A stretch of DNA of 23,465 nucleotides from a virus (Duplodnaviria > Heunggongvirae > Uroviricota > Caudoviricetes), in the IMG/VR virus record IMGVR_UViG_2531839529_000006; one strand, written 5' to 3'. This document shows positions 1-15,498 of the stretch, one piece after another. The position numbers and the translations under genes are program-made. Below the pieces are notes generated by a model. The model searched no databases. It saw only the letters and a program-made list of their open reading frames with translations, and was not told where the DNA came from. How positions within the stretch are numbered: the first letter of the stretch is position 1; every line of letters begins with the position of its first letter.

Positions 1-474
1 TGGCATTTTCATCAACGCTTCAACGATATGTCCGTCGAATGTTGCCATGTCTTCCTGCAACAATTCCTGTGCGCTAATAACCATATCAACGGTGATGTTT
101 TCACATGTGTCGAACTTAACCATGACAGCGTTCTGTACTTCAGGGGCCAGCTTGTCAAAAGTGACGTTCATCGGATCGGATTCAGTCTCAACCGGGACAA
201 AGGAAGCAGACTCCTCATCCCAGCGGTTTTCCTGCATATATTCAGCATCCCAGGAATCGAGGGCAGGGCGGGGTATACCGGGTTTATCCTCGCAGACAAG
301 AAATTTATAAGCGCAGTCCTGAGCAGCCGGATAATGTTCCAGGAATTGCCAGTGAAATTTTGCGCGGGCGCGACGTTCATCACCGGCTTCAATGGCAGTG
401 GCTACAGCGACGGCACCTTCTTCCTTTATTGCCTGTTCGTCCGGAATGGCGGCGCAAATAAAGACTTTACTCAT
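1..474 (-). CDS. Hypothetical early-left protein, partial (3' end lies beyond window start)
   Basis: Minus-strand reading frame open from ATG at 474 to the window edge (begins MSKVFICAAIPDEQAIKEEG...); GAGG Shine-Dalgarno about 10 nt upstream. The plus-strand ORF 28..534 is its antisense shadow. No family recognised. Confidence 0.5.
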   Translation of the reverse strand, partial: MSKVFICAAIPDEQAIKEEGAVAVATAIEAGDERRARAKFHWQFLEHYPAAQDCAYKFLVCEDKPGIPRPALDSWDAEYMQENRWDEESASFVPVETESDPMNVTFDKLAPEVQNAVMVKFDTCENITVDMVISAQELLQEDMATFDGHIVEALMKMP

Positions 475-566
475 TTTGTTTTACCTCATTACAGATTTAA
501 GGGTGAACAAATCCCTGCCATTGCTGGCATATAAGAATGAAACCGGATATTTATTACGGAACTGTT

Positions 567-758
567 TTAAAGACCTGCCGGGATTTCGTTATTATCCTGG
601 TGAATAACTTTATCGACCGGGTAACAGTTACCGGGAATTTTCTGTTCGGTTGCTGCAGTCACACACTCCTGCATTGTCCTGTGAACACTGACTGCAATAT
701 CAACTGGCTCTCCGGAAACAAGAAAAACTGTCAGAACAAGTGCAAATGCTGTATTCAT
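567..758 (-). CDS. ydfD: YdfD-like small membrane (lysis) protein, 63 aa
   Basis: 63-aa ORF with hydrophobic N-terminus (MNTAFALVLTVFLVSG...). Its ATG overlaps the dicB stop in an ATGA arrangement, the same size, position and 4-nt overlap as ydfD next to dicB in the Qin prophage. Assignment is by synteny and size, not sequence identity. Confidence 0.5.
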   Translation of the reverse strand: MNTAFALVLTVFLVSGEPVDIAVSVHRTMQECVTAATEQKIPGNCYPVDKVIHQDNNEIPAGL

Positions 759-943
759 TGCCAGCATCCTTTTTGTATCGGACGTAAACGGGCCAGCATT
801 GAAAGAATGCATATTTTATTTAATAGCTCCCGTTCGTGTTTTCTCTTGTTAATGGCATCTTCAGTAAATACAGGGTTACTGATAGTGACACCAATTTCAA
901 AACAACCTTCAGACGTATTAACGTTTGGTAATAACGTTTCCAT
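755..943 (-). CDS. dicB: Cell-division inhibitor DicB (MinC-activating), 62 aa
   Basis: Translation METLLPNVNTSEGCFEIGVTISNPVFTEDAINKRKHERELLNKICILSMLARLRPIQKGCWQ is near-identical to E. coli K-12 Qin DicB as recalled from memory. Confidence 0.85.
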   Translation of the reverse strand: METLLPNVNTSEGCFEIGVTISNPVFTEDAINKRKHERELLNKICILSMLARLRPIQKGCWQ

Positions 944-1112
944 TATCGCGTCCTCAACAATGAATTTTGTGATGCGGTGCCTGGTGCCTCCAGGTGACGT
1001 TAACCAGTTAACAATTAACGCCGGATACAGAGAATCCACCCATAACACTGTTTTTGGTTTTAACTGTTCCGCGTGCGCTCAGCCGCATTCACCACATCAC
1101 AAAATTCACTTT

Positions 1113-1170
1113 AAAAAGGGCGGCAGAGCAGTCACGGAGTAAAACTGATACCGCCAAACGTCACCAGAAA
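1113..1170 (-). ncRNA. dicF: DicF small RNA (ftsZ-targeting sRNA) with intrinsic terminator
   Basis: Minus-strand sequence TTTCTGGTGACGTTTGGCGGTATCAGTTTTACTCCGTGACTGCTCTGCCGCCCTTTTT matches the DicF sRNA as recalled, including the GGCGG/CCGCC terminator stem and U-run. Lies just upstream of dicB as in Qin. Confidence 0.8.
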
Positions 1171-1502
1171 ATTGATAACAGAGGGCGTTGCAGCGGGGTT
1201 GTCACTTAAGCGTATGGTCAACCTGACAACCCGGTGTCCTCAACGGGGGAAGGAATAACCCCGCCATACTTACCGCCGCACCATTTCGCGGATTGCCACA
1301 ACCGGAAGCGCACGGTCGAACTAAATTTAACGACACCGTACAGAGAGACCAATTTCGCCGTGCGCTTTCGCGTTATGCCCTGACTTTTCAGGGACATATC
1401 CTTTCAGTAAACTGTCAGTGCCGGATGTTCACCCGTGTCCGGCGCACGCACTCCACCTGACCCGTGGAGAACTCCTTAATTACCAACCCTCAGGAGGGTG
1501 AA

Positions 1503-1781
1503 ATGGATAAAAAGCAAATTGAGGCCCTGCAATCTATTATTGAAAAACAAGATGAAGCTATCAGGATTCTTTCATATCGCACTGATATGATACTAAATAT
1601 GCTTTCTGCATTAACGGCTGCGCTTGGTGGTACAAAAACAAACGTATACCGCGAAGTTGTTATTCAACAGATAGATAAATTTGAAAAAACCATACCAGGT
1701 ATTAATGCTCATCTTGCAGAACAAGAGAAAGACCATGCTCTTATGGCAATTTCTTCAGTAGCTCTCCCGAAAGTTGAGTAG
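1503..1781 (+). CDS. Hypothetical coiled-coil protein, antisense to the early-left operon
   Basis: ATG at 1503 preceded by AGGAGG about 7 nt upstream; 92 aa (MDKKQIEALQSIIEKQDEAIRIL...). Its 3' end overlaps the convergent minus-strand gene by about 40 nt. No family recognised. Confidence 0.35.
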   Translation: MDKKQIEALQSIIEKQDEAIRILSYRTDMILNMLSALTAALGGTKTNVYREVVIQQIDKFEKTIPGINAHLAEQEKDHALMAISSVALPKVE

Positions 1782-2154
1782 TTTTAATTGTTGTTTTGAA
1801 ATAATCACTGCTTTCACATTTGAGTGATTTCATGGCAATCCAAATGCGGGCCTCTGTGCCTGCATTTGGTTCCAGTTGCTGTAGACGTTTTGCGTCTTCC
1901 AAAAGTAAGGCGATAATGTGTTTCAGCTTCTCATCATTTGCTTGATTCTTGTTTTCAGGCGAATTCTGTCCGCCGAATAGGCGCTTCTCTTCATACAGAC
2001 CTATAAAGGCACGACGCACGTTACCGGATATAGTATCGATGGTTTCTTTTTCTACGGTACTCAGGTCAAGAGTCGCCAGTTGAGAGCGAACCACATTCGA
2101 TGCCATTTCCTGGAATGGTACTGGTAAATCTTTAAATTCCATCGTCAACCTCAT
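1741..2154 (-). CDS. Hypothetical early-left protein, 137 aa
   Basis: ORF whose ATG overlaps the stop of the upstream gene in a TGATG arrangement, suggesting translational coupling. An in-frame ATG at 2142 with GAGG upstream is an alternative start. No family recognised. Confidence 0.55.
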   Translation of the reverse strand: MRLTMEFKDLPVPFQEMASNVVRSQLATLDLSTVEKETIDTISGNVRRAFIGLYEEKRLFGGQNSPENKNQANDEKLKHIIALLLEDAKRLQQLEPNAGTEARIWIAMKSLKCESSDYFKTTIKTTQLSGELLKKLP

Positions 2155-2387
2155 CAGTCAGTGTTTCTGGTTAACCAGCGACGCGCGCCAGCTTCAGTTT
2201 TAAACGTTTTGCTTCTGGTATACGTCATCGCGGTAAACGTGCCGTCCTGGTTGGGGAACACGCCACATACCAGAGATTCGTTGTTGCCAAGATTGAGCAT
2301 ATCCATGTTGACCTCATTTCCCCTTAACGCCGGGGTAGCGGAACAAAAACCTGCTGCATAGTTATTAAAGTTGAACCCTGCCGTCAT
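2154..2387 (-). CDS. Hypothetical early-left protein, 77 aa
   Basis: First ORF downstream of the leftward promoter/operator region; GAGG Shine-Dalgarno about 9 nt upstream of the ATG at 2387. Confidence 0.5.
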   Translation of the reverse strand: MTAGFNFNNYAAGFCSATPALRGNEVNMDMLNLGNNESLVCGVFPNQDGTFTAMTYTRSKTFKTEAGARRWLTRNTD

Positions 2388-2571
2388 GTTCTTACGCCTC
2401 GGGCTGGCTACTTAACCCCTGACCACTGCCTGGTAACTCGAAGTATTGCCCTGCATTCTGTGGGGCGGGGTGGGTTGGTATGAAAAGAAGGATACCCATA
2501 GGTATTTAAAAAGTAAATACCCGTGGGTAAATTTTTGCGGTGTCTTAACTGGTGACTAGTTGTTTGGTGAG
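2388..2571 (-). promoter_or_regulatory. OL/PL-like leftward early promoter with two operator palindromes
   Basis: Inverted repeats ATACC-CATA-GGTAT (2492..2505) and TACCC-GT-GGGTA (within 2516..2530). On the minus strand a -35 TTTACC (2531..2526) and -10 TAAATA (2508..2503) are 17 nt apart and overlap the operators. Confidence 0.5.
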
Positions 2572-2991
2572 CTATGATGCGTTTTGTGCTTTCTTTTTAC
2601 GGATTTCTTCGTAGATCATATTGTAATACTGTTTTTTCTCTTCAAGAGTTTTTAATAATTTATCCGCTTCACTTTCTGGCAGTTCGTCTAAGAGATCTAA
2701 AAAAATACGTTGTCGTGGCGTTAGAACCCTTGTTTCATAACTGGAGGCTGTGTTCGTTGATGATGAAACGATACCATCCATCCATCCCCGGGGTAACCCA
2801 AAGGACTCTTCGATAATCTCCACCATATCATCAGCGATCCGTTTTTTTCCCTTTTTCCCCTCTGGGTACAACATTCTTGATACATAAGAAGGCTCGCGCC
2901 CGATCTTTCTGGCCACGTTAACCGCTTTACCATCGCATTTCTCATCACGAATTTTGATGAGTTGCTGTCGTCTAAATTCATATTTGTCCAT
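2572..2991 (-). CDS. DicA-like prophage repressor (HTH, functional CI/C2 analogue)
   Basis: 139 aa with an N-terminal HTH (GKAVNVARKIGREPSYVSRM). The C-terminal segment LTPRQRIFLDLLDELPESEADKLLKTLEE resembles the DicA C-terminus as recalled. Divergent from a Cro-like gene, with operators on both sides. No Shine-Dalgarno; a TATTAT -10 sits about 7 nt upstream of the ATG. Confidence 0.75.
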   Translation of the reverse strand: MDKYEFRRQQLIKIRDEKCDGKAVNVARKIGREPSYVSRMLYPEGKKGKKRIADDMVEIIEESFGLPRGWMDGIVSSSTNTASSYETRVLTPRQRIFLDLLDELPESEADKLLKTLEEKKQYYNMIYEEIRKKKAQNAS

Positions 2992-3091
2992 AGGTAAATA
3001 ATAGATGCGATTACCGCAAGGTAAACAACCTGTGGGTATTGACTTTTGTTTACCTGTGGGTATTCTTTGCTGTGTTTACTAAGGAGTAGCT
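2992..3091. promoter_or_regulatory. OR-like divergent promoter/operator region
   Basis: Direct repeats ACCTGTGGGTATT at 3028..3040 and 3052..3064, each containing a TACC-N4-GGTA palindrome. Rightward -35 TTGACT (3039..3044) and -10 TATTCT (3062..3067) with 17-nt spacing, then AAGGAG SD (3079..3084) for the Cro-like gene. Confidence 0.6.
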
Positions 3092-3373
3092 ATGGAAGAA
3101 TTAAGAATATTTCTCAATTCTCTTTCGTCAGATGAACAGCGTATGTTTGCATGCGAGTGTGGTACCAGCATCGGTTATCTAAGAAAGGCATTGAGTAAAG
3201 GTCAAGTGTTAGGGGCATCGTTATGTGTCCTTATTGAGCGAGCCAGTAATGGTGAAGTTACACGTCAGCAACTAAGGCCTTTTGATTGGATGAATATTTG
3301 GCCCGAGCTGGAAGATACCAAAACGTTAACACAACCACTTTCTAGGAGCTTGATTCATGAAAATCAAGCATGA
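3092..3373 (+). CDS. Cro-like DNA-binding protein (YdaS/DicC-type)
   Basis: 93 aa, strong SD AAGGAG 7 nt upstream, divergent from the repressor. Motif pattern ...GTSIGYLRKAL...LIERASNGEVTRQQLRPFDW... is typical of YdaS/Cro-type phage regulators. Confidence 0.7.
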   Translation: MEELRIFLNSLSSDEQRMFACECGTSIGYLRKALSKGQVLGASLCVLIERASNGEVTRQQLRPFDWMNIWPELEDTKTLTQPLSRSLIHENQA

Positions 3374-3782
3374 ACACATCCGCATGGCGATGAATGTCTG
3401 GGCGCATCCGGACGGCGAAAAAGTGCCGGCTGCGAAAATTACCAAAGCGTATTTCGAGCTGGGAATGACGTTCCCGGAACTGTATGACGACAGCCATCCG
3501 GAAGCCCTGGCCCGTAATACCCAGAAAATTTTCCGTTGGCTGGATAAAGACACCCCTGATGCTGTTGAAAAAATGCAGGCTCTGTTACCGGCGATCGAAA
3601 AGGCGATGCCGCCTTTGCTGGTGGCCCGTATGCGTAGCCACAGTTCTGAATATTACCGTGATATCGTCGAACGGAGGGATCGGCTGGTGAAGGATGTCGA
3701 TGATTTTGTTGCGTCAGCGGTTGTTTTGTATGACCAGATGAATCGCGGCGGCCCGGCAGGGAATGCTGTGGTGATGCACTAA
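3357..3782 (+). CDS. YdaT/CII-like regulatory protein
   Basis: 141-aa ORF directly after the Cro-like gene, overlapping it by 17 nt; AGGAG SD. Position and size match YdaT-family genes of Rac-like immunity regions. Confidence 0.55.
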   Translation: MKIKHEHIRMAMNVWAHPDGEKVPAAKITKAYFELGMTFPELYDDSHPEALARNTQKIFRWLDKDTPDAVEKMQALLPAIEKAMPPLLVARMRSHSSEYYRDIVERRDRLVKDVDDFVASAVVLYDQMNRGGPAGNAVVMH

Positions 3783-3804
3783 AAGCACGGTGTTCGGGGG
3801 TTTT

Positions 3805-4767
3805 ATGAGCAGCAAGCTTCATGGTCTTGTCTGGGAAGGGTGCGCCTTCACCGGCATGATCTTATCCAGGGTGGCGGTTATGGCCCGTCTTGCAGACTAC
3901 AGCAATGACGAGGGCGTGTCATGGCCTGCCATTGAAACTATCCGGCGTCAGATCGGTGCAAGAAGTGAATCCACAGTGAAATCGGCTATTGCAGAACTGG
4001 CGAAAGAGGGCTGGCTGACGAAGGAAGAGCGTAAGGTCGGTGGGCGTAATGTAAGCAATATCTATCGGCTTAATGTGGAAAAACTCGAAGCAGCTGCGGC
4101 GGCGGCGCGTGAGTCATATAAACCGAAAAGAAAAATTAGCCCGGCAAAAAATGACCCGTTAACAGTTGACCCGTCAAATATTGACCCCTCAACGGTTGAC
4201 CCGTCAAATTTTGATGGATCAACTGTTGATAAAAAACTGCCGATTAGGGGGCCGATGATTGACCCCGATCCGTCAGTATTAAAACCTGATCCGTCAGATA
4301 AAAGATCTTCTTGTCCGGACGCTTCGCAACCGGACCCGCAGACGGCTGAACAGGATTTTTTAACCCGACACCCTGACGCGGTTGTGTTCAGTGCGAAAAA
4401 ACGCCAGTGGGGAAGTCAGGAAGATTTGGTGTGCGCACAGTGGATCTGGGGACGAATCGTGAGTCTTTACGAGCAGGCGGCCAGCTATGATGGCGAGATC
4501 ACTAGACCGAAAGAACCCAACTGGACAGCATGGGCCAATGACGTTCGCACAATGCGGATGCTGGATGGCAGAACTCACAGACAAATTTGTGAAATGTTTG
4601 GGCGTCTCCAGCGGGATTCGTTCTGGGTAAAAAACATCATGAGTCCGGCAAAACTCCGGGAAAAATGGGATGAACTGGTTATCCGCCTGGGGCGTTCGCC
4701 TGCGCAGCGTTGCGTGAATCACATTTCTGAACCGGACACTGAAATACCGCCGGGATTCAGGGGGTGA
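3805..4767 (+). CDS. Replication initiator (lambda O-like, N-terminal HTH) carrying internal origin iterons
   Basis: N-terminal winged-helix region (VSWPAIETIRRQIGARSESTVKSAIAELAKEGWLTKEE). The internal protein repeats DPLTVDPSNIDPSTVDPSNFDGSTVD are encoded by DNA iterons. A GTG at 3790 is an alternative start. Followed by a DnaC-like loader gene. Confidence 0.7.
   Translation: MSSKLHGLVWEGCAFTGMILSRVAVMARLADYSNDEGVSWPAIETIRRQIGARSESTVKSAIAELAKEGWLTKEERKVGGRNVSNIYRLNVEKLEAAAAAARESYKPKRKISPAKNDPLTVDPSNIDPSTVDPSNFDGSTVDKKLPIRGPMIDPDPSVLKPDPSDKRSSCPDASQPDPQTAEQDFLTRHPDAVVFSAKKRQWGSQEDLVCAQWIWGRIVSLYEQAASYDGEITRPKEPNWTAWANDVRTMRMLDGRTHRQICEMFGRLQRDSFWVKNIMSPAKLREKWDELVIRLGRSPAQRCVNHISEPDTEIPPGFRG
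4151..4230. repeat. Origin-like iterons inside the initiator gene
   Basis: Tandem 14-15-bp repeats: GTTGACCCGTCAAAT twice exactly (4166..4180 and 4196..4210), plus the variants ATTGACCCCTCAACG, ATGACCCGTTAACA and TTTGATGGATCAACT, followed by an A-rich stretch. Same arrangement as ori-lambda inside O. Confidence 0.6.
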
Positions 4768-4773
4768 CGTGTC

Positions 4774-5520
4774 ATGAAAAACATTGCGGCAGGCGGCGTT
4801 CTTGAACGTATCCGAAGACTGGCTCCGCCACATGTAACCGCCCCATTCAGAACGGTAGCGGAGTGGCACGAGTGGCAACTTGCTGAAGGCCAGAAACGTA
4901 GCGAGGAGATCAACCGCCTGAATCGCCAGTTGCGGGTGGAAAAAATTCTGAATCGCTCAGGCATCCAGCCGTTGCACCGTAAATGCTCGTTTGCGAATTA
5001 CCAGGTGCAGAACGACGGTCAGCGATACGCGTTGAGCCAGGCGAAATCTATCGCTGATGAACTGATGACCGGATGCACAAATTTCGCGTTTAGCGGAAAA
5101 CCTGGTACCGGGAAGAACCACTTAGCAGCAGCTATCGGGAATCGCCTGCTGAAAGACGGTCAGACAGTGATTGTGGTTACCGTGGCTGATGTTATGAGTG
5201 CCCTCCACGCCAGCTATGACGATGGGCAGTCAGGCGAAAAATTTTTGCGGGAACTGTGCGAAGTGGATCTGCTGGTTCTTGATGAAATTGGCATTCAGCG
5301 CGAGACGAAAAACGAGCAGGTGGTACTGCACCAGATTGTTGATCGCCGGACAGCGTCGATGCGCAGCGTGGGGATGCTGACAAACCTGAACTATGAGGCC
5401 ATGAAAACATTGCTCGGCGAGCGGATTATGGATCGCATGACCATGAACGGCGGGCTATGGGTGAATTTTAACTGGGAGAGCTGGCGTCCGAATGTCGTCC
5501 AGCCAGGAATTGCGAAGTAA
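4774..5520 (+). CDS. DnaC-like helicase loader / replication ATPase (IstB-like)
   Basis: Walker [16 protein letters not shown] and Walker B LLVLDEIG; 248 aa; immediately downstream of the initiator. Confidence 0.85.
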
Positions 5521-5542
5521 TTTTTACCGGGAGAAAAATTTA

Positions 5543-6304
5543 ATGGAGACTGTTTTTGACGCACTGAAAGCAATGGGAAAAGCCACATCCATAGAACTTG
5601 CTGCGCGACTTGATATCAGTCGTGAAGAAGTGCTGAACGAACTATGGGAACTGAAAAAGGCTGGTTTTGTTGATAAAAGCGCGTACACCTGGCGTGTGGC
5701 TGATAACAACGTTCAGCAGGAACAGCCAGCGCAGGCAGAACTGCCGGAAGAAATCACCACAGCAACAGTAGCGAAAATCTCAGAGTGCGATTTAACCGCG
5801 ACGATTGAACAACGAGGACCACAAACGGCTGATGAGCTGGCTACATTGTTTGGTACCACATCACGCAAAGTGGCTTCAACGCTGGCAATGGCAATCAGCA
5901 AAGGTCGTCTGATTCGCGTAAATCAGGGCGGTAAATTTCGTTACTGCATACCGGGCGATAATTTACCAGCAGAGCCGAAAGCAGCATCGGTAGCGGAAAC
6001 TGATGGTAAGGCCTTTCCTCATACCGCAGGTGTTGCGTTACCAGTACAGGAGGCTGCAACACAGGAAGATATTAAAACAGAAACTGTGGCGGACATTGTG
6101 CAGTCGCTGCCATCGTTTACTGAAACGCGAGCGGATGACCTGGTTTTACCATCACTGCATATGGCAAACCGCGAACTGCGTCGGGCGAAAAATCATGTCC
6201 AGAAGTGGGAGCGAGTCTGCGCCGCGCTGCGGGAGCTGAACAAGCACCGGGATATTGTTCGACAGATTACTGATTCTTCCCGCCGTGTTGTATCGGAAAA
6301 GTGA
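5543..6304 (+). CDS. Hypothetical protein with N-terminal winged-helix domain
   Basis: ORF with SD GGGAGA upstream of the ATG at 5543 (the ORF track starts it at 5492). N-terminus [41 protein letters not shown] looks like a winged helix. Confidence 0.6.
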
Positions 6305-6319
6305 TTGCCGGAGGCGCTT

Positions 6320-6751
6320 ATGGCAAAAGTATTTACACAAGAAGAGCGGGAAAAAATTAAAGGGCAGGTTGTTGAGCTAGTACGCCGGAGTGGGCGCGAG
6401 ACGTTACGGCAACTGGAAGCCAAGACAGGTGCGACAAGATATCTGATGAGCGTTCTCGCCAGAGAGCTGGTTGCCAGTGGCGATGTATACAACTCTGGTT
6501 ACGGGTTATTCCCGTCTGAACAGGCTCGTAAGGACTGGCAAAATGCCCGCAAAAAACTATCCAGGGCAAAGGTGAAGAAACCATCTGTGGTTGATCCGGA
6601 CCTTATCTGGTCATTACCAGACGGAGAAATACGCCGCTACGACAGGCGTCTGAACATAATCTGTCGCGAGTGCCGGAAGAGCGAAGTTATGCAGCGTGTG
6701 CTGGCGTTTTATCAGAATGGTTTTCGAGAGAGGCTTGGAGATCAGGGATGA
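6320..6751 (+). CDS. Hypothetical protein
   Basis: ORF with GGAGG SD about 6 nt upstream of the ATG at 6320; last gene of normal GC content before the AT-rich cassette. Confidence 0.55.
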   Translation: MAKVFTQEEREKIKGQVVELVRRSGRETLRQLEAKTGATRYLMSVLARELVASGDVYNSGYGLFPSEQARKDWQNARKKLSRAKVKKPSVVDPDLIWSLPDGEIRRYDRRLNIICRECRKSEVMQRVLAFYQNGFRERLGDQG

Positions 6752-6944
6752 ATAGAACGATGAAGGATGGAAGCTACATATTCTCGGTACTAAGATTTAT
6801 TTTTCTGACACAAAATGACCATTTGGCGTTACATAATCCCAAAAAAACGTATCAAAAATCTCAAAATGCGTTACGATTAGAGAGTATTTTGATTCTGCGT
6901 GCTCATTTTTTGATTGCTGTGGCTTTTTGTTGTGGGAGTGTTGA

Positions 6945-8099
6945 ATGGATTATTTATCAGAAGTGTTAAAAATCATTGAAGGTGCAACAAAGGCAAATGC
7001 TTCGATGGCTAGTAATTATGCTGGGTTGCTGGCAGATAAGCTCGAACAAAAAGGGGAGGTCAAGCAAGCCAGAATGATAAGAGAAAGGTTGCTTAGAGCT
7101 CCCCAGGCGTTGGCAGGAGCTCAAAGGGCTGGAGGTGGGATATCTCTGGGCTCATTACCGGTAGATATTGATAGTCGACTCAACACTGTTGATGTCAGTT
7201 ATCCTAAATTAGACAGTTCAGAGATTTTTCTGCCTGCAGCAATCAGTACCCGTGTTGAAGAGTTTATCACTAATGTTCAACGTTATGATGAGTTTGTTAA
7301 AGCTGATGCAGCATTGCCGAGTCGTATGCTCGTGTATGGAAAGCCAGGAACAGGTAAGACTATGTTATCTAAGTACATCGCTACCCGCTTAGATTTTCCA
7401 CTTCTTACAGTGCGTTGCGATACTTTGATTAGTAGTTTATTGGGACAAACCAGCAAAAATCTTAGACAGGTTTTCGATTATGTAATGCAGAGGCCATCAG
7501 TGCTTTTTTTAGACGAATTTGATGCTTTAGCTGGAGCAAGAGGTAATGAGAGAGATATAGGTGAGCTTCAGCGAGTTGTCATTTCACTATTGCAGAATAT
7601 GGATGCGGCATCAGAGGATACGGTAATTATTGCCTCAACTAACCATGAGCAACTTCTGGATCCTGCAATCTGGAGGCGATTTAGCTTCAGAATTCCAATG
7701 CCTCTGCCTGACATACATCAGAGAGAGTTAATTTGGAAAAATCGTTTAAAGAATATGATATGTAGCGATCTAGATTTAAGTGATTTATCAAGAAAATCGG
7801 AGGGATTATCCGGAGCAATAATTGAACAGGTGAGCTTGGATGCACGTAGGGATGCAGTTATTGAAGGTGCAAGTGTGATAAATCACCATAAATTGTATAG
7901 GCGTTTGTATCTTGCGCAATCGCTTATGGAAGGTGTAAATTTAAGCACTTACGAAGATGAAATTCGTTGGTTACGTTCTAAAGATAAAAAATTATTTTCT
8001 ATCAGAGTTCTTGCTAATTTGTACAAACTTACATCAAGAGTAATTTCAAACATTCTGAAGGAGTCAGGAGCATATGAGCAGAAGGGGTACACAGTTTAG
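6945..8099 (+). CDS. AAA+ ATPase (classic AAA clade), 384 aa; first gene of a candidate defense pair
   Basis: Walker A GKPGTGKT, Walker B VLFLDEFD, sensor-1 IIASTNH and arginine-finger region AIWRRF are all present. GGGAG SD upstream. AT-rich codon usage compared with the flanking phage genes. Confidence 0.85.
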   Translation: MDYLSEVLKIIEGATKANASMASNYAGLLADKLEQKGEVKQARMIRERLLRAPQALAGAQRAGGGISLGSLPVDIDSRLNTVDVSYPKLDSSEIFLPAAISTRVEEFITNVQRYDEFVKADAALPSRMLVYGKPGTGKTMLSKYIATRLDFPLLTVRCDTLISSLLGQTSKNLRQVFDYVMQRPSVLFLDEFDALAGARGNERDIGELQRVVISLLQNMDAASEDTVIIASTNHEQLLDPAIWRRFSFRIPMPLPDIHQRELIWKNRLKNMICSDLDLSDLSRKSEGLSGAIIEQVSLDARRDAVIEGASVINHHKLYRRLYLAQSLMEGVNLSTYEDEIRWLRSKDKKLFSIRVLANLYKLTSRVISNILKESGAYEQKGYTV

Positions 8100-10338
8100 T
8101 AACGCAAAAGTTACAAACCCAATGTTAAGAATCCCTTTTTCCAGTAGTGACTTGGGTGCAATAGTAAACGCTGGCGGTGGGGCAAAGGTATTGGTTGATG
8201 TAACAGCCGAATATAGACAAGGGCTAGTAAGAAATTTAACAACCAGTAAACATTATTTAGAATCCAAACTTTCAGAGTACCCTGGAAGCTTGGGTACTTT
8301 GGTTTTCAAATTAAGAGACCAGGGAATAGCCAAAACGCATAGGCCGAACAAAATTGCTCAAGAGGCTGGATTGCAAAATGCCGGTCATGCCAAAATAGAT
8401 GAAATGTTGGTTGCTGCTCATGCCGGCTGTTTTGACGTATTAGAGTCAGTCATTTTACATCGGAATATTAAAGCGATTTTGGCTAATCTAAGCGCGATTG
8501 AGCGCATTGAACCTTGGGATGAGAATAGGAAGGTTCCAGGAGGCACTGATGGTTTGTTTGAATCATCAAACATCCTTGTACGACTATTTGAGTACACAGG
8601 TGAAGATGCAACTTACAACAACTATGAAAACGTTATTTCTATATTAGAACAACACGGAGTTAAATATGATGAGATTAGACCAAAATGTGGTCTTCCCTTA
8701 TTAAGGATAATGGATTTATCCCCAAATGATAGATATATATTAGACATTCTCATTGATTACCCGGGTATAAGAACGTTAATTCCAGAACCAAAATATTCAG
8801 CATTCCCGGTTAGTGTAAGTGATTCTGTTGGCATTGAAACAAATAGCTTTCCCGTACCATCAGAAGAATTACCCATTGTTGCTGTATTTGACACTGGGGT
8901 AAGCCCCATCGCGGCAACAATTACTCCTTGGGTAGTGAGTAGGGAAACATACGTAATTCCTCCTGATACGAGTTATGAACATGGGACTATGGTGTCTTCA
9001 TTGATATCAGGCGCTCATTTTTTAAATGACAATCATCCATGGATTCCTGATACAAAATCTAAAATCCATGATGTTTGTGCTTTAGATGAAAATGGATCTT
9101 ATATATCAGATTTAATTCTGAGGCTAGCAGATGCTGTAAATAAAAGACCAGATATAAAAGTCTGGAATTTGTCTTTGGGAGGCGGACCATGTAATGAGCA
9201 GATGTTTAGTGATTTTGCGATGGAGTTAGATCGGCTCAGCGATAAATTTGGTATTTTGTTTGTAGTTGCTGCAGGTAATTATGTAGATGAACCTATACGT
9301 ACATGGCCAAATCCTGATCCGCTTGGAGGTGCTGATTTAATTTCCTCTCCTGGAGAGTCAGTCCGAGCACTAACAGTTGGTTCAGTTTCTCATATGGAAG
9401 CTAATGATGCTTTAAGTGAAATTGGAACACCGACACCATATACTCGTCGTGGCCCTGGGCCTGTATTTACTCCAAAGCCAGATATAATCCATGCTGGCGG
9501 TGGGGTTCATAGACCTTGGAATGTAGGAGCAAGCAGTTTAAAGGTCGTAGGGCCAGATAATAGGCTTTGCTCTAATTTTGGTACTAGTTTTGCTGCTCCA
9601 ATTGTGGCAAGTTTAGCTGCGCATACATGGCAGAGAATAGCCACTAATTCAGACTTTAATGTTTCACCATCATTGATTAAAGCATTATTAATTCATTCCG
9701 CTCAATTATCTTCTCCTGATTACTCGCCAAGTGAAAGACGCTATTTGGGAGCGGGAATTCCTAATGAGGTTATTGAGACCTTATATGATAGTGATGATAG
9801 GTTTACTCTGATTTTCCAAACATTCTTGGTTCCTGGGGTGAGGTGGAGAAAGGAAAACTATCCCATACCATCGGCACTTATTCAAAATGGAAAATTTAAA
9901 GGTGAGATTGTAATTACTGCTGCATATGCACCACCACTGAACTCTAATGCCGGCAGTGAATATGTTCGCGCGAACGTAGAGCTAAGTTTTGGCTTAATTG
10001 AGAATAATACTATAAAAGGAAAAGTACCTATGGAAGGAGAAAACGGTCAATCTGGATATGAGAGAGCTCAAATTGAGCATGGTGGAAAGTGGTCACCAGT
10101 AAAAATTCATCGCAAGGCATTTAATAAAGGAATTACTTCGGGTAACTGGGCTCTTCAAGCTAAAACAACGTTGAGAGCGAATGAACCGGCCTTAATGGAG
10201 CCTTTACCTGTAACTATTGTAGTAACTTTAAAATCATTAGATGGAAACACACAAGTTTATGCTGATGGCGTAAGAGCTTTAAATGCTAATAACTGGGCTC
10301 ACTATCCATTGCCTGCTCGTGTGCCAGTTTCCGTATAA
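8074..10338 (+). CDS. S8 family subtilisin-like serine protease, 754 aa, no signal peptide
   Basis: Catalytic motifs in canonical order: Asp (VAVFDTGVS), His (YEHGTMVSS), oxyanion Asn (VVAAGNY), Ser (GTSFAAPIVA). Strong SD AAGGAG..AGGAG; overlaps the ATPase gene by 26 nt. About 265 aa N-terminal and about 200 aa C-terminal of the protease core are unassigned. Confidence 0.85.
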   Translation: MSRRGTQFSNAKVTNPMLRIPFSSSDLGAIVNAGGGAKVLVDVTAEYRQGLVRNLTTSKHYLESKLSEYPGSLGTLVFKLRDQGIAKTHRPNKIAQEAGLQNAGHAKIDEMLVAAHAGCFDVLESVILHRNIKAILANLSAIERIEPWDENRKVPGGTDGLFESSNILVRLFEYTGEDATYNNYENVISILEQHGVKYDEIRPKCGLPLLRIMDLSPNDRYILDILIDYPGIRTLIPEPKYSAFPVSVSDSVGIETNSFPVPSEELPIVAVFDTGVSPIAATITPWVVSRETYVIPPDTSYEHGTMVSSLISGAHFLNDNHPWIPDTKSKIHDVCALDENGSYISDLILRLADAVNKRPDIKVWNLSLGGGPCNEQMFSDFAMELDRLSDKFGILFVVAAGNYVDEPIRTWPNPDPLGGADLISSPGESVRALTVGSVSHMEANDALSEIGTPTPYTRRGPGPVFTPKPDIIHAGGGVHRPWNVGASSLKVVGPDNRLCSNFGTSFAAPIVASLAAHTWQRIATNSDFNVSPSLIKALLIHSAQLSSPDYSPSERRYLGAGIPNEVIETLYDSDDRFTLIFQTFLVPGVRWRKENYPIPSALIQNGKFKGEIVITAAYAPPLNSNAGSEYVRANVELSFGLIENNTIKGKVPMEGENGQSGYERAQIEHGGKWSPVKIHRKAFNKGITSGNWALQAKTTLRANEPALMEPLPVTIVVTLKSLDGNTQVYADGVRALNANNWAHYPLPARVPVSV

Positions 10339-10352
10339 CAACTATATAAATC

Positions 10353-10380
10353 AAACCCGCTGTAGCGGGGTTGATTTATT
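10353..10380 (+). terminator. Rho-independent terminator closing the ATPase-protease cassette
   Basis: GC-rich hairpin CCCGC-TGTA-GCGGG followed by a T-rich tract, 15 nt after the protease stop codon. Confidence 0.6.
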
Positions 10381-10746
10381 TGTGGGTGTGTTTTATAAAA
10401 ATACCGCCCATACACAACAAAATACAAAAAGTATTACAGATAAAAAAGGAGCGTAATGTGCAGATTTGTTGTTTTCCATATTTACTCACCTTAATATGAT
10501 TAATCCCGATAAGATTGTTATTTCAGCGGTTTTCAAATGAAATATTATGCTAATCTGGCAGATTTGCATAACATTAAAATTTAATTTATCTAACCGCTTT
10601 TAATAATAAGCGTTGTATTTTTATCCCAGCAATCTGTTGTTTGGTTTTTATTCCATTAAGGTGGGGCTTTACACTGGAGCCAGTTTATTTATACTTCATA
10701 CGTCAGCCTGAACAACTGGCACCTGCTGCGCCAGCAGAGAAAACAG

Positions 10747-11025
10747 ATGGCGCACGATACCAAATTTTACAATTCGGATAACTCTGCCGCCCCTGCCAGC
10801 AGGCACGGGCGGCGTTCTCATGCATTCAAATCTGACTGGTATCAGCACGACCCCTGCACCGAAGAACAGGCTGAATGGCTCATTCAGTGTTACCGCGGGC
10901 GCGGATGCGAGGTTAAAAAAGCCCTTAGCCTCGACTACCGTCACTGGATAATCTCCGTCAGGCTCCCTTACTCAGAACGGCCAGCGCGTCCGTCCCGCAC
11001 ATTCCAGCAACGGATCTGGAGGTAA
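10747..11025 (+). CDS. Hypothetical protein, 92 aa
   Basis: ORF ending 1 nt before the GTG start of the next gene; weak SD. No family recognised. Confidence 0.4.
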   Translation: MAHDTKFYNSDNSAAPASRHGRRSHAFKSDWYQHDPCTEEQAEWLIQCYRGRGCEVKKALSLDYRHWIISVRLPYSERPARPSRTFQQRIWR

Positions 11026-11026
11026 T

Positions 11027-12085
11027 GTGCGGGTATTACTTCGATCTGTTCTGGTACCGGAACTCGGTCTGGTTATCGTTAAGCCAGGCCGTGAATCAAT
11101 GTCAGCATTCCATAACGGCAGAATACTGGTGGAGCCGGAACCAAAAAGCATGCGTAATCTGCCGTCCGGGGTCGTTCCTGCCGCTCGCCAGCCGCTGGTG
11201 GAAGACAAAACATTGCTGCCGTTTTTCAGTAACGCACGGGTGATTCGTGCTGCTGGTGGTGCTGGTGCATTGTCTGACTGGCTGTTGCGCCATATTAAAT
11301 CCTGCCAGTGGCCACACGGCGATTATCATCACAGCGAAACCGTCATTCACCGTTATGGTACCGGCGCAATGGTGTTGTGCTGGCACTGCGACAACCAGCT
11401 GCGTGACCAGACATCCGAATCACTCGGGCAACTTGCTCATCAAAACCTGTCAGCATGGATGATTGACGTCATCGGTCACGCAATAAGCGGTACGCAGGAG
11501 CGTGAATTATCTCTGGCTGAATTATCCTGGTGGGCGGTCCGCAATCAGGTGGCGGACGCGCTACCGGAAGCGGTATTACGTCGTTCGCTGGGGTTGCGTG
11601 CGGAAAAAATTCGCTCTGTGTACAGTGAAAGCGACATCATACCGGGAGAGCAGACCGCCACCAGCATACTGAAACAGCGCACAAAAAATCTTGCGCCGCT
11701 GCCTCACGCCCACCAGCAACAGAACCCACCACAGGAAAAGACGGTGGTCAGCATTGCCGTTGATCCCGAGTCACCGGCTCAGTATTTCCAGCGCCAGAAA
11801 TCACAACGGGAAGAGATGCCTGTATACACGCGCTGGGTAAAAACGCAGAAATGCATGACGTGTGGCAATCAGGCAGATGATCCGCATCACATCATTGGTC
11901 ATGGACTGGGAGGGATGGGAACAAAGGCTGATGATTTGTTTGTTATTCCGCTGTGCCGTAAATGCCATAGCGAACTACACGCCGGGGTAAAAGATTTTGA
12001 AGAAAAACACGGCAGCCAGCTGTTGTTGCTGATTCGTTTTTTAATGCACGCGAGAAATTCGGGTGTTCTGAAGTGGAAAGCATAA
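11027..12085 (+). CDS. DUF968/YdfU-like protein with C-terminal HNH-like zinc motif
   Basis: 352-aa ORF with GTG start and GGAGG SD 5 nt upstream. The C-terminus (KCMTCGNQADDPHHIIGHGLGG...IPLCRKCHSELH) has an HNH/YbcO-like CxxC...HH...CxxCH pattern. Sits directly upstream of rusA. Confidence 0.6.
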   Translation: MRVLLRSVLVPELGLVIVKPGRESMSAFHNGRILVEPEPKSMRNLPSGVVPAARQPLVEDKTLLPFFSNARVIRAAGGAGALSDWLLRHIKSCQWPHGDYHHSETVIHRYGTGAMVLCWHCDNQLRDQTSESLGQLAHQNLSAWMIDVIGHAISGTQERELSLAELSWWAVRNQVADALPEAVLRRSLGLRAEKIRSVYSESDIIPGEQTATSILKQRTKNLAPLPHAHQQQNPPQEKTVVSIAVDPESPAQYFQRQKSQREEMPVYTRWVKTQKCMTCGNQADDPHHIIGHGLGGMGTKADDLFVIPLCRKCHSELHAGVKDFEEKHGSQLLLLIRFLMHARNSGVLKWKA

Positions 12086-12466
12086 ATGACTGAACGCATA
12101 GAATTTGTTTTGCCTTACCCGCCAACGGTGAACACTTACTGGCGTCGTCGTGGCAGCACATATTTTGTATCAAAAGCCGGGGAGCGTTATCGCCGGGCAG
12201 TGGCGCTTATTGTTCGCCAGCAGCGGCTGAAATTAAGCCTGTCCGGAAGGTTGGCAATAAAAATTATTGCAGAACCACCGGATAAGCGCCGCCGTGACCT
12301 GGACAATATTCTGAAAGCGCCGCTGGATGCGCTGACGCATGCGGGGTTGCTAATGGACGATGAGCAGTTTGATGAAATCAATATCGTTCGTGGTCAGCCA
12401 GTATCTGGTGGACGTCTGGGGGTGAAGATTTACCCCATAATGCATGAAGAGCAGGTCAAAAAATGA
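12086..12466 (+). CDS. rusA: Holliday-junction resolvase RusA
   Basis: 126 aa. Conserved RusA pattern YPPTVNTYWRR...DKRRRDLDNILKAPLDALTHAGLLMDDEQ...GGRLGVKIY matches E. coli RusA as recalled. Confidence 0.85.
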   Translation: MTERIEFVLPYPPTVNTYWRRRGSTYFVSKAGERYRRAVALIVRQQRLKLSLSGRLAIKIIAEPPDKRRRDLDNILKAPLDALTHAGLLMDDEQFDEINIVRGQPVSGGRLGVKIYPIMHEEQVKK

Positions 12467-13284
12467 AACTGGAAGATTTACCGAAATACTACTCCCCAAA
12501 ATCCCCCGGCCTGACTGATGCATCGGCCTCAACGTCGAAAGATGCGCTGAGTATCACTGATGTGATGGCCGCGCAGGGCATGACACAGAATCGGGCTGAG
12601 ATGGGGTTTTCTGCGTTCCTTGGGAAAATGGGCATCAGTATGAATGACAGGGCGCGGGCAACAGAATTGCTGACAGAATATGCACTCAGTCGGTGTGATC
12701 GCGTGGCGGCGTTAAGAAAACTCCCGGCAGAAATAAAACCGGTAGTGATGCGCATTATGGCTTCGTACGCTTTTGAGGATTATGCCCGCAGCGCAGCGAG
12801 TAAAAAGCAGTGCCCTTGTTGCTATGGGGAAAAATTTATTGAAAGCGTAGTTTTTACAAACAAGGTCCAGTATCCGGATGGTAAGCCGCCGGTATGGGCA
12901 AAGTGTACGAAAGGTGTGTATCCGTCTTACTGGGAAGAATGGAAAAAAATTCGGGAGGTGGTGAAAGTGTCTTGTCCTGAATGTAAAGGGAAGGGGGAGA
13001 TTTCCACTGCCTGTAAAGACTGCCGTGGGCGTGGTGTTGCCATTCATCGTGAAGAGTCGGTAAAACGTGGTATGCCTGTTATCAGAGACTGCCAGCGTTG
13101 TGGTGGTCGTGGCTGTGAAAGACTACCATCAACGGAGGCATTTAATGCCATATGCAAAGTGACGAGTGCTATCACGCTTGATACGTGGAAAAAATCAGTG
13201 AAACGCTTTTACGATACGTTGGTGGTTCGGTTTGACATTGAAGAGGCATGGGCGGAGCGGCAGTTAAAGAGGGTAACGCGATAG
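12463..13284 (+). CDS. Late-gene antiterminator Q (lambda Q family, extended zinc-binding region)
   Basis: N-terminal region KYYSPKSPGLTDASASTSKDALSITDVMAAQGM...FSAFLGK aligns with lambda Q (KFHSPKSPMMSD...GTDVMAAMGM...) as recalled. Several CxxC pairs are present. Confidence 0.85.
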   Translation: MKLEDLPKYYSPKSPGLTDASASTSKDALSITDVMAAQGMTQNRAEMGFSAFLGKMGISMNDRARATELLTEYALSRCDRVAALRKLPAEIKPVVMRIMASYAFEDYARSAASKKQCPCCYGEKFIESVVFTNKVQYPDGKPPVWAKCTKGVYPSYWEEWKKIREVVKVSCPECKGKGEISTACKDCRGRGVAIHREESVKRGMPVIRDCQRCGGRGCERLPSTEAFNAICKVTSAITLDTWKKSVKRFYDTLVVRFDIEEAWAERQLKRVTR

Positions 13285-13289
13285 TGTTG

Positions 13290-13317
13290 TTGATTTTTCC
13301 CGAATCTGTGGTAAATT
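13290..13317 (+). promoter_or_regulatory. PR'-like late promoter (with putative qut site)
   Basis: TTGATT-16 nt-TAAATT followed by TGCTCTAACGATGGG, very close to lambda PR' (TTGACT-17 nt-TAAATT-TGACTCAACGATGGG) as recalled. Confidence 0.6.
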
Positions 13318-13366
13318 TGCTCTAACGATGGGCGTTTTATGCCTGACGTTAGATGATTTTTTACAC

Positions 13367-13390
13367 CCCGCCGCCTGGCGGGTTTTTTAT
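13367..13390 (+). terminator. tR'-like intrinsic terminator
   Basis: Stem CCCGCC/GGCGGG with a GCCT loop followed by TTTTTT, about 50 nt downstream of the PR'-like -10. Predicts a short 6S-like RNA unless Q-modified. Confidence 0.6.
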
Positions 13391-13510
13391 GACTGAAATC
13401 GCGTCAGTACAGTAAACGCGCTGGTGGCGGTGAATACCTGTCTTTCAGCTTGCTGGCTTTTTCGACAAGAGTTATTGGTGTGTCACGTTAACCGGAAAAG
13501 GGAAAAAGAC

Positions 13511-13708
13511 ATGCTAAAACAGCAGGATATGACAGAAACTGCCAGAGTGGTGTTTAATGAATTAAGCGTTACCGAACCGGCGACAGTCGGGGAGATAGCG
13601 CAGAATACTTACCTTTCACGCGAACGCTGCCAGTTAATACTGACCCAGCTGGTTATGGCGGGTCTGGCAGACTATCAGTTCGGTTGTTACAGACGCCTTC
13701 CGCAGTGA
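13511..13708 (+). CDS. Small hypothetical protein, 65 aa
   Basis: ATG at 13511 with a purine-rich SD-like stretch (AAGGGA) 9-14 nt upstream. The ORF track extends it to 13424, but that would start inside the terminator region. Followed by a hairpin and T-run. Confidence 0.45.
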   Translation: MLKQQDMTETARVVFNELSVTEPATVGEIAQNTYLSRERCQLILTQLVMAGLADYQFGCYRRLPQ

Positions 13709-13720
13709 AGGCTTTTTTAT
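13695..13720 (+). terminator. Intrinsic terminator-like hairpin
   Basis: Stem GCCTTC/GAAGGC with 6-nt loop followed by TTTTTTATTT, overlapping the stop codon of the 65-aa ORF. Confidence 0.5.
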
Positions 13721-13858
13721 TTGTGGTAAATGGGCGGCTGGTGGGTGTTAGGGGCACCCACCAGCCATCTGCTCATGCGTTGGGTTCACAAGCAAACCTC
13801 AGGCCCACTGCTTTGCGCAAAAGCAGAATGAGCCTATCAGAGACAGGCTTAATGATCC

Positions 13859-14908
13859 ATGCTTAATACTGTAAAAATATCCAGTTGTGAGTTAATCAAC
13901 GCCGACTGCCTGGAATTTATCCGGTCGTTACCCGAAAATTCTGTTGACCTGATAGTTACGGACCCGCCGTACTTTAAAGTGAAGCCTGAGGGCTGGGATA
14001 ACCAGTGGAAGGGCGACGATGATTACCTGAAGTGGCTGGACCAGTGTCTGGCGCAGTTCTGGCGGGTGCTGAAACCTGCCGGAAGTCTTTACCTGTTCTG
14101 TGGTCATCGCCTGGCATCTGATATCGAAATCATGATGCGTGAACGCTTCAGTGTGCTGAACCATATTATCTGGGCGAAGCCGTCCGGACGCTGGAACGGA
14201 TGCAACAAGGAAAGCCTGCGGGCGTATTTCCCCGCCACAGAGCGCATTCTGTTCGCGGAACATTATCAGGGGCCGTATCGTCCGAAAGATGCCGGGTATG
14301 CGGCGAAGGGCAGTGCACTGAAACAGCATGTGATGGCCCCGCTGATTTCTTACTTTCGTGATGCGCGCGCGGCCCTGGGGATAACGGCAAAACAGATTGC
14401 AGATGCCACAGGAAAGAAAAACATGGTGTCGCACTGGTTCAGTGCCAGTCAGTGGCAGCTACCGAACGAAAGCGATTATCTGAAATTACAGTCGCTGTTT
14501 GCCCGGGTGGCAGAAGAGAAACATCAGCGCGGTGAACTGGAAAAGCCCCACCACCAGCTGGTGGATACGTATACGTCACTGAACCGGCAGTATGTGGAGC
14601 TGCAGAGTGAATATAAGCATCTGCGGCGGTATTTTGGTGTGACGGCGCAGGTGCCGTACACGGATGTGTGGACACATAAACCGGTGCAGTTCTATCCCGG
14701 GAAACATCCGTGCGAAAAACCGGCAGAAATGCTGCAGCAGATAATCAGCGCAAGCAGTCGTCCGGGAGACCTGGTTGCAGATTTTTTTATGGGCTCAGGT
14801 TCAACGGTAAAAGCTGCACTGGCGCTCGGGCGTCGTGCGATTGGCGTTGAACTGGAGACCGGACGTTTTGAGCAGACAGTCAGGGAAGTTCAGGATTTAA
14901 TCGTTTGA
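13859..14908 (+). CDS. DNA methyltransferase, beta-class amino-MTase, apparently orphan
   Basis: Motif IV DPPY (LIVTDPPYF) near the N-terminus and motif I FxGxG (FFMGSGST) near the C-terminus, the beta-class order. No cognate restriction gene adjacent. Confidence 0.85.
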   Translation: MLNTVKISSCELINADCLEFIRSLPENSVDLIVTDPPYFKVKPEGWDNQWKGDDDYLKWLDQCLAQFWRVLKPAGSLYLFCGHRLASDIEIMMRERFSVLNHIIWAKPSGRWNGCNKESLRAYFPATERILFAEHYQGPYRPKDAGYAAKGSALKQHVMAPLISYFRDARAALGITAKQIADATGKKNMVSHWFSASQWQLPNESDYLKLQSLFARVAEEKHQRGELEKPHHQLVDTYTSLNRQYVELQSEYKHLRRYFGVTAQVPYTDVWTHKPVQFYPGKHPCEKPAEMLQQIISASSRPGDLVADFFMGSGSTVKAALALGRRAIGVELETGRFEQTVREVQDLIV

Positions 14909-14957
14909 AACGGATGAGATTGCAGAATTAATTACGCACCATTATTATTCTGCTCCC

Positions 14958-15033
14958 GGCCCTTTAGCTCAGTGGTGAGAGCGAGCGACTCATAATCGCC
15001 AGGTCGCTGGTTCAAATCCAGCAAGGGCCACCA
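14958..15033 (+). tRNA. tRNA-Ile2 (anticodon CAU, lysidine type), phage-encoded
   Basis: 76-nt cloverleaf GGCCCTTTAGCTCAGTGG...CTCATAA...GGTTCAAATCC...AAGGGCCACCA. 7-bp acceptor stem, anticodon loop CT-CAT-AA, encoded CCA. Resembles ileX/ileZ. Confidence 0.8.
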
Positions 15034-15040
15034 TCACATA

Positions 15041-15117
15041 CCGCCATTAGCTCATCAGGAAAGAGCGCCAGCCTTCGAAGCTGGTTGCGCGGGGTTCAAG
15101 TCCCCGATGGCGGTCCA
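15041..15117 (+). tRNA. tRNA-Arg (anticodon UCG)
   Basis: 77-nt cloverleaf: acceptor CCGCCAT/ATGGCGG, T-arm CGGGG-TTCAAGT-CCCCG, anticodon loop CT-TCG-AA, 3' CCA. Confidence 0.75.
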
Positions 15118-15130
15118 TTATCTGCATCAT

Positions 15131-15207
15131 GCGTTGTTAGCTCAGCCGGACAGAGCAATTGCCTTCTAAGCAATCGGTCACTGGTTCGAATCCAGTACAA
15201 CGCGCCA
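15131..15207 (+). tRNA. tRNA-Arg (anticodon UCU, rare AGA codon reader)
   Basis: 77-nt cloverleaf: acceptor GCGTTGT/ACAACGC, T-loop GGTTCGAATCC, anticodon loop CT-TCT-AA, 3' GCCA. Confidence 0.8.
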
Positions 15208-15442: not shown

Positions 15443-15470
15443 CAGCCCCTCTCCGGAGGGGCTGTTTATA
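15443..15470 (+). terminator. Intrinsic terminator-like hairpin
   Basis: 9-bp stem CAGCCCCTC/GAGGGGCTG with TCCG loop, followed by a T-rich tract. Confidence 0.5.
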
Positions 15471-15498
15471 TTGATTTTGTCAGATGTGAGTAAACTGC

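Follow-up and report, generated by a model that had tools for sequence, protein, structure and literature searches.

In Escherichia coli K-12, the Qin prophage codes for a small RNA (sRNA), DicF, together with the proteins DicB and YdfD. DicF represses ftsZ, xylR and pykA by base pairing, as proven with compensatory mutants (PMC5069750), and it also represses manX (PMC6832061, PMC5861419). DicB binds MinC and dissolves Z rings in a ZipA-dependent manner; acting via MinC, it further blocks the ManYZ-dependent entry of lambda DNA, with ~100-fold resistance as the result (PMC6832061). K-12 YdfD binds IspG and lyses dividing cells, a lysis that co-expressed DicB prevents (PMC8835842). Transcripts of both kinds, ending at DicF or reading through to ydfD, have been seen in K-12 (PMC10448788). 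The dicBF locus was documented in multiple prophage contexts, with several copies in O157:H7 (Balasubramanian et al. 2016; PMC5069750, Fig. 9), and the functional phage mEp460_ev081 carries it as well (Ragunathan et al. 2023; PMC10448788). Here we analysed a dicF-dicB-ydfD module on the minus strand of a 23,465-nucleotide (nt) stretch of Caudoviricetes DNA (IMG/VR record IMGVR_UViG_2531839529_000006; the whole stretch is hereafter called the window). With a probability of roughly 0.88, the window carries an intact dicBF-type segment of the leftward early operon of a lambdoid prophage that would act as in K-12.

The phage lambda gene kil offers a looser parallel. It too codes for a small division inhibitor and belongs to the leftward early operon, with regulatory genes on one side and recombination/exo genes on the other; its product acts on FtsZ in a ZipA-dependent manner (PMC3961180). 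However, it has no sequence relation to the module and acts on FtsZ assembly rather than via MinC, and lambda has neither a DicF-like sRNA nor YdfD.

The module and its untranslated parts comprise the following features:

1171 to 1488, minus strand: untranslated leader with homology to the spacer between ydfC and dicF in Qin
1118 to 1170, minus strand: DicF sRNA (1170..1118), followed by its terminator T-run at 1117..1113 (Rfam RF00039, K-12 identity, fold)
944 to 1112, minus strand: untranslated dicF-dicB spacer, including the dicB Shine-Dalgarno sequence GAGGA 7 nt before the ATG
755 to 943, minus strand: dicB, 62 amino acids (aa), cell-division inhibitor (Pfam PF05358, NCBIfam NF049927)
567 to 758, minus strand: ydfD, 63 aa, DUF1482 lysis protein (Pfam PF07358)

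The Rfam model RF00039 matched positions 1169..1118 over its full length (1-52/52) with 76.7 bits (E = 1.3e-15; gathering score 48). Consistently, the 53-nt dicF of K-12 (b1574, NC_000913 1649382-1649434; the K-12 reference was the NC_000913 region around dicF, with Qin genes b1571-b1576) aligned with 1170..1118 without a single difference (53/53). The sequences that pair with xylR/pykA (5') and with ftsZ (3'), as defined in PMC5069750, are the same as in the characterised K-12 DicF. Fold prediction gave a GC-rich 3' hairpin with the stem GGCGGUA.../...UGCCGCC and UUUUU directly after it (-15.9 kcal/mol, z -2.3). This terminator was absent from the output of a simple terminator scan because the loop and bulge of the compound stem exceed the scan rules, and we accept it since the fold and the Rfam structure both show it. 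Upstream, the leader is 83.9% identical to K-12 in its distal part (1488-1308) and 97.8% identical at 1307-1171; the latter 137 nt are the counterpart of the leader in the published 190-nt DicF precursor generated by RNase III (sites from PMC10448788). The leader is also predicted to pair over a long range with the 3' half of DicF (z -2.19). In RefSeq, the Prokaryotic Genome Annotation Pipeline (PGAP) annotated dicB and the DUF1482 gene on the near-identical prophage in NZ_AP022177.1 (locus 12943-13503) and placed no dicF non-coding RNA between dicB and its neighbour, the sequence being the same as in the window.

DicB matched PF05358 over its entire length (1-62/62; 127.4 bits, cut-off 27) and NF049927 with 132.7 bits (NCBIfam cut-off 100), and its open reading frame (ORF) runs from ATG to TGA (943..755). 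The protein is identical to K-12 DicB at 55 of 62 positions (89%; 93.7% at the nucleotide level), so the relation claimed by the first-pass annotation holds, and its wording, "near-identical", was slightly generous. The substitutions relative to K-12 are K2E, Q36H, V47L, L55P, M56I, P57Q and A61W. The N-terminus (METLL...) thus keeps L5 and has E in place of K2, and the tail reads PIQKGCWQ, the mEp460-type allele, versus LMPKGCAQ in K-12. Published work found L5 of DicB to be critical, K2 to be substitutable and the last eight residues to be dispensable (PMC4967827), and five of the seven changes lie at positions tolerant by that account (K2 and four of the last eight residues). As judged from the sequence, DicB of the window is likely active, because its changes fall mainly at tolerant positions, L5 is kept and the allele nearly equals that of mEp460_ev081, a functional phage. 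Among eight independent copies of the module (the window and seven others), which served for all conservation comparisons, the last eight codons take at least three forms, and it is conceivable, though unlikely, that the tails LMPKGCAQ and PIQKGCWQ adjust the specificity of DicB for its partners or for exclusion.

YdfD scored 88 bits against PF07358 (DUF1482; cut-off 25) and is identical to its K-12 counterpart at 59 of 63 residues (94%; nucleotides 97.4%). Both conserved cysteines, C32 and C45, are present, and residues 1-15 are hydrophobic (mean Kyte-Doolittle hydropathy 1.96). The dicB stop and the ydfD start share ATGA at 758..755, confirming the ydfD-like overlap reported earlier.

Nucleotide alignment to Qin dicF-dicB-ydfD, which the first-pass annotation had proposed as a check, returned one contiguous block of 1491 bp at 95.1% identity. 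The block spans window positions 1488..1, from just past ydfC, across dicF, dicB and ydfD, into ydfE. Within it, the 604-nt module (567..1170) as a whole is 98% identical to the characterised K-12 locus, and by this alignment the similarity lies far beyond chance. DicF shows no divergence in seed or terminator (53/53) and DicB aligns with its K-12 counterpart (55/62). Together with scores above the Rfam, Pfam and NCBIfam cut-offs, the alignment upholds the assignment of DicF, DicB and YdfD on the minus strand.

Qin and the window share the gene order dicF-dicB-ydfD-ydfE/exonuclease, the ATGA overlap and a ydfA-like first gene, and in both a repressor gene of the same strand stands upstream of the module. 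The core of a Qin-type locus, dicF-dicB-ydfD followed by ydfE/exonuclease on the repressor strand, is therefore present. The full Qin set ydfA-ydfB-ydfC-dicF-dicB-ydfD is reduced to a ydfA-like gene upstream of the module: ydfB and ydfC are absent, with zero Qin homology at window 1489-2174, and where Qin has ydfB and ydfC, the window instead has a 137-aa gene and a convergent 92-aa ORF. Nor does the Qin scheme of a dicBp repressed by DicA apply, as the N-terminus of the window repressor is unrelated and the promoter region is non-homologous. The promoter/operator region is unrelated to that of Qin, pointing to another immunity type. In addition, the Qin exonuclease gene (ydfE) is cut by IS2, whereas the window copy is uncut within the stretch seen.

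Conservation among the eight independent copies is highest in the untranslated RNA. Leader, DicF and spacer (944-1307) are 97-100% identical, above the adjacent dicB and ydfD coding sequences. Taken separately, the leader part 1307..1171 shows 97-98.5% identity across the seven other copies, and the dicF-dicB spacer (174 nt when counted with the T-run) shows 97-100% across these copies and 99.4% to K-12. In the O157-type PPompW copy, the untranslated RNA is kept at 98-100% identity, with dicB at 76% and ydfD at 57%. The spacer might have a second function, as a further regulatory RNA or as a structured element gating dicB translation or terminator read-through, because the untranslated part stays 97-100% identical where dicB drifts to 76% and ydfD is replaced; we consider such a function unlikely. 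This pattern of conservation is the only feature that hints at something so far undescribed, be it a spacer function or allele-specific DicB tails, and the odds are well against that too.

The surroundings of the module place it in a leftward early operon, of which the relevant features are:

3092 to 3373, plus strand: cro-like gene of the YdaS type (Pfam), diverging from the repressor gene
3027 to 3062, no strand assigned: OR-like operator pair (AACCTGTGGGTA, TACCTGTGGGTA) in the intergenic region that separates the divergent repressor and cro-like genes
2572 to 2991, minus strand: prophage repressor, 139 aa (PHROG 5736 "transcriptional regulator", E = 6e-70)
2493 to 2529, no strand assigned: OL-like operator pair (TACCCATAGGTA, TACCCGTGGGTA), 43-79 nt downstream of the stop codon that ends the repressor gene
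2154 to 2306, minus strand: ydfA-like gene (DUF1391), first gene of the left operon (Pfam PF07151, 97 bits)
1741 to 2154, minus strand: 137-aa gene (PHROG 1363, unknown function, E = 1e-44)
1503 to 1781, plus strand: 92-aa ORF with a strong Shine-Dalgarno sequence (PHROG 18692, unknown function, full-length, E = 6e-63)
1 to 474, minus strand: exonuclease gene, N-terminal 158 codons, running off the window (PHROG 2082, positions 1-158/823, E = 1e-118)

A palindromic 12-mer, TACCYRYRGGTA, has four matches (at most one mismatch) in the 23.5-kb window, two at 2493-2529 and two at 3027-3062. By chance a mean of 0.39 matches is expected and none of 100 shuffles reached four, a statistic that is post hoc in that the pattern was taken from the very copies counted. 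Judged by sequence and position, the palindromes follow the left/right operator (OL/OR) arrangement of lambdoid phages; promoter-like hexamers on both strands overlap the OR-like pair (3027..3062), and a YdaT-type gene (Pfam) accompanies the YdaS-type cro-like gene, divergent from the repressor. We infer a leftward early promoter near 2493-2529. The module lies downstream of the repressor gene and the palindromes and upstream of the exonuclease gene, with both genes and the module on the same strand. The synteny repressor-...-dicF-dicB-ydfD-exo-xis-int holds in near-identical prophages and in phages mEp460_ev081 and Tritos. These observations sustain the earlier placement in the early-left operon with its putative promoter.

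The ydfA-like gene and the ydfA region of K-12 have a nucleotide identity of 88.8%; a 77-aa reading from 2387 is possible, and a relative annotates it as a 50-aa DUF1391 protein. The exonuclease gene is 95.6% identical to K-12 ydfE, and relatives carry an 823-aa version annotated as exonuclease or exodeoxyribonuclease VIII; its N-terminus in the window was without a Pfam match. Likewise, the 137-aa and 92-aa proteins had no Pfam match, and the PADLOC models left them unmatched too, along with the repressor, DicB and YdfD. A convergent small ORF similar in kind to the 92-aa one is annotated in mEp460_ev081. The placement of the window ORF recalls sieB in the lambda PL operon.

We transfer the K-12 mechanism to the window on the strength of an identical RNA and of proteins with 89-94% identity. 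In a lysogen, the 139-aa repressor would bind the palindromes at 2493-2529 and keep the leftward promoter off. Upon a lapse of repression, by an antirepressor, stress or stochastic switching, a transcript would cross first the ydfA-like gene, then the 137-aa gene and finally the long leader. Processing by the RNases III and E, along with termination at the DicF hairpin, would then release the 53-nt DicF, which with Hfq should pair with ftsZ mRNA near the ribosome-binding site and block FtsZ synthesis, xylR, pykA and manX being repressed as well. Transcripts reading through the terminator would yield DicB and the translationally coupled YdfD. DicB would take MinC to the septum via ZipA, so that Z rings dissolve, and via MinC would also block the ManYZ-dependent DNA entry of lambda-like phages. 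YdfD would bind IspG and lyse dividing cells, with the division arrest by DicB counteracting the lysis. Phage exclusion had earlier been ascribed to DicB and DicF alike; the published phenotype is ascribed mainly to DicB, and DicF is reported only to repress manXYZ (PMC6832061). Control of the module is predicted to differ from that in Qin, with repressor and operators of another immunity type and with ydfB and ydfC replaced.

Several observations weigh against a K-12-like action of the module. Two DicB changes, Q36H and V47L, fall outside the positions shown to be tolerant, and the K2 substitutions examined in PMC4967827 did not include E. A consensus promoter scan found no sigma-70 site with at least 9/12 matches, and so none that is strong, at the putative leftward promoter; because of this result, the promoter is placed by the operator-like palindromes and synteny. 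Inside the operon, the convergent ORF at 1503..1781, which overlaps the 3' end of the 137-aa gene by 41 nt, could disturb transcription in the leftward direction. Nor is the repressor DicA: by BLASTP only the C-terminal 46 aa resemble K-12 DicA (15/46, 33%), the N-terminal part is unrelated, and the match to the C-terminal part of the NCBIfam DicA model is weak and below the cut-off. No Rem-like antirepressor was identified in the window. The repressor lacks any Pfam domain and shows no LexA/S24 cleavage domain that could be recognised, so that induction would likely proceed via an antirepressor or stochastic switching, not via RecA-mediated cleavage. Finally, classical induction may not occur, given a packaging defect of the prophage described below.

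A different selected role is possible. The module could be an accessory of the lytic cycle, with the same molecules and targets as in a K-12-like action, in which the division stop enlarges the cell and the burst, YdfD is an auxiliary lysis factor and exclusion is a side effect. Supporting this, the cassette is nearly unchanged in isolated plaque-forming or virome-derived temperate phages and occupies the position of kil in the lambda PL operon (PMC3961180). However, it is intact in many defective prophages, such as the window and Qin, where a lytic cycle is impossible, and the published resistance is strong (~100-fold; PMC6832061). Host benefit and a role for the phage are, moreover, not mutually exclusive. 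We regard this alternative as a plausible minority view.

It is quite improbable that the module is inert, that is, intact cargo of a decaying prophage, kept through recent insertion, whose expression never reaches a level with an effect on the host. The prophage is defective, with a 1-nt deletion and an IS66-family insertion in gene A, and toxic products should be tightly repressed (PMC5069750, PMC10448788). Yet the reading frames, Shine-Dalgarno sequences and terminator are all intact, the untranslated RNA is 97-100% conserved in the eight independent copies while flanking coding DNA diverges, and 4648 of 5426 genomes have the module, often in multiple copies. Furthermore, the equally cryptic Qin of K-12 yields DicF in stationary phase and turns on in ~1% of cells (PMC10448788). 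The idea of chance resemblance or mis-called ORFs, with neither the short ORFs nor the 52-nt RNA match representing genes, is refuted by the Rfam, Pfam and NCBIfam matches (profile E-values 1e-15 to 1e-39), the 98% identity to the K-12 locus across the module and the conservation of the K-12 start codons and Shine-Dalgarno sequences, even though all three products are very short and longer ORFs overlap them (755..1048, GTG start, 97 aa; 567..812, ATG start, 81 aa). The reading we prefer is thus that of a K-12-like dicBF segment under a different repressor.

The cassette is already known and annotated, all three of its products are characterised and its genomic setting is the usual one. Screening of the 604-nt module against 5426 complete E. 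coli genomes gave matches in 4648, of which 3779 were at a coverage of at least 80% (about 70-85% of the genomes); the median is two module places per genome, the maximum nine. Many strains, O104:H4 and 55989 among them, have a 100% identical module, in which RefSeq annotates dicB and a DUF1482 protein. Thirty-eight phage records carry it, and Tritos is annotated with "DicF antisense sRNA", dicB and ydfD. In mEp460_ev081 (LR597641), a temperate phage from an infant gut virome, the module is 99.5% identical, E39K is the sole difference in DicB and YdfD equals that of the window; the order of small genes, convergent small ORF and dicF-dicB-ydfD-exo-xis-int is also that of the window. This phage is functional and has a DicA/C2-type repressor with a Rem-like antirepressor (PMC10448788), whereas in the window the repressor is of another type and the terminase gene is disrupted. 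Stretches resembling the DicF end of the module were found in the records named Aeromonas phage AP1 (254 kb; MT713136.1 249916-250152, 97.9% identical) and Actinobacillus phage vB_Apl-pPE4 (PP818812.1 5840-6004, 88.8%); in these unexpected hosts the matches could be contamination, misassembly or real transfer.

The element had further been described as otherwise lambda-like and as a mosaic; the first description fails at the DNA level, and as a mosaic the arrangement is not notable. As counted by blastn, 2561 of 23465 bases match lambda (NC_001416) versus 4511 matching Qin. The lambda-matching parts are Rz (80.5%), the cos flank (86%) and cos-Nu1 with part of A (99.7%); Qin matches the module together with ydfA, ydfU, the lysozyme gene and cos/nohA. 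No alignment to lambda was obtained for the early and replication regions or for the nin equivalent; overall, the gene order is lambdoid. The Q protein of the window is 40% identical to Qin Q and 29% to lambda Q; as it aligns with both, we rejected the possibility that it belongs to a family different from lambda Q. The layout is standard for a very large family of E. coli lambdoid phages and prophages (PMC5069750, Fig. 9), of which Qin is a decayed member. The earlier note thus overstated the mosaic, its identification and operon placement being right.

The closest relatives are prophages integrated at ompW (e.g., WP7-S17-ESBL-04, NZ_AP022177; O157 PPompW), to which window 1..21026 is 98.5% identical. 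They share the repressor, dicB, ydfD, replication genes, iteA/iteS, Q, transfer RNAs (tRNAs) and lysis genes with the window. In the O157 PPompW copies, DicF and the spacer are kept, DicB is 70% identical and the downstream gene is different. After the lysis genes, the ompW prophages continue with HK97-type HNH, terminase and capsid genes, whereas the window continues from ~21026 with lambda-type cos-Nu1-A. The recombination joint of note is accordingly at ~21026, the point at which a lambda-type packaging module joins, and not at dicF-dicB-ydfD. Two genes follow this joint:

21421 to 21966: Nu1, intact
21941 to 23465: terminase large-subunit gene A, a pseudogene with a 1-nt deletion at ~22432 (lambda nt 1202) and an IS66 insertion

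Gene A is broken at 23068/23069 by an IS66-family (ISCro1-like) element on the minus strand, and lambda homology stops at 23068. The A/IS66 junction occurs in only 8 of the 5426 complete genomes, mostly of enterotoxigenic E. coli. Contamination as the source of the lambda-identical Nu1-A stretch was rejected, as its left flank is just 86% lambda-like and the junction recurs in these eight genomes. The prophage, like Qin, is packaging-defective because gene A is frameshifted and interrupted by IS66. The earlier expectation that induction would express the division inhibitors is accordingly weakened: productive induction is doubtful with gene A broken, though that defect has no bearing on expression of the left operon.

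Beyond correct annotation, the importance of the finding is small, since the wide multi-copy spread of this toxic cassette across E. coli and varied prophage contexts has been documented (PMC5069750, PMC6832061, PMC10448788). Its value lies in marking a prophage region that, when derepressed, would be expected to arrest host division and probably to block ManYZ-dependent phages, and in recording that DicF is present, though PGAP skipped dicF in a near-identical relative.

Other genes of the window lie to the right of the control region. An anti-phage pair, the ATPase IteA and the S8 protease IteS (IetA/IetS), occupies 6945-10338, flanked by the replication genes on one side and the DUF968/rusA/Q genes on the other. 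IteA scored 526.6 bits against NF042959 (cut-off 510) and IteS 1040.7 bits against NF042956 (cut-off 900); the PADLOC models gave E = 9e-143 for IetA and E = 4e-300 for IetS. Downstream of Q and of a DNA methyltransferase gene, the 14958-15473 region contains three tRNA genes. The first has a CAT anticodon (Met according to ARAGORN, Ile in the relative) and the others are Arg-TCG and Arg-TCT; the closest relative has two tRNAs. In Shiga toxin (Stx) phages, stx occupies this position downstream of Q; the window has no stx gene. After the tRNAs, the Rfam sRNA model STnc100 matched 15284-15473 with 132.4 bits. By position and length in an annotated relative, an iraM-like ORF (15499..15834, minus strand) and a SASA-family esterase gene (16080..17948, plus strand) follow.

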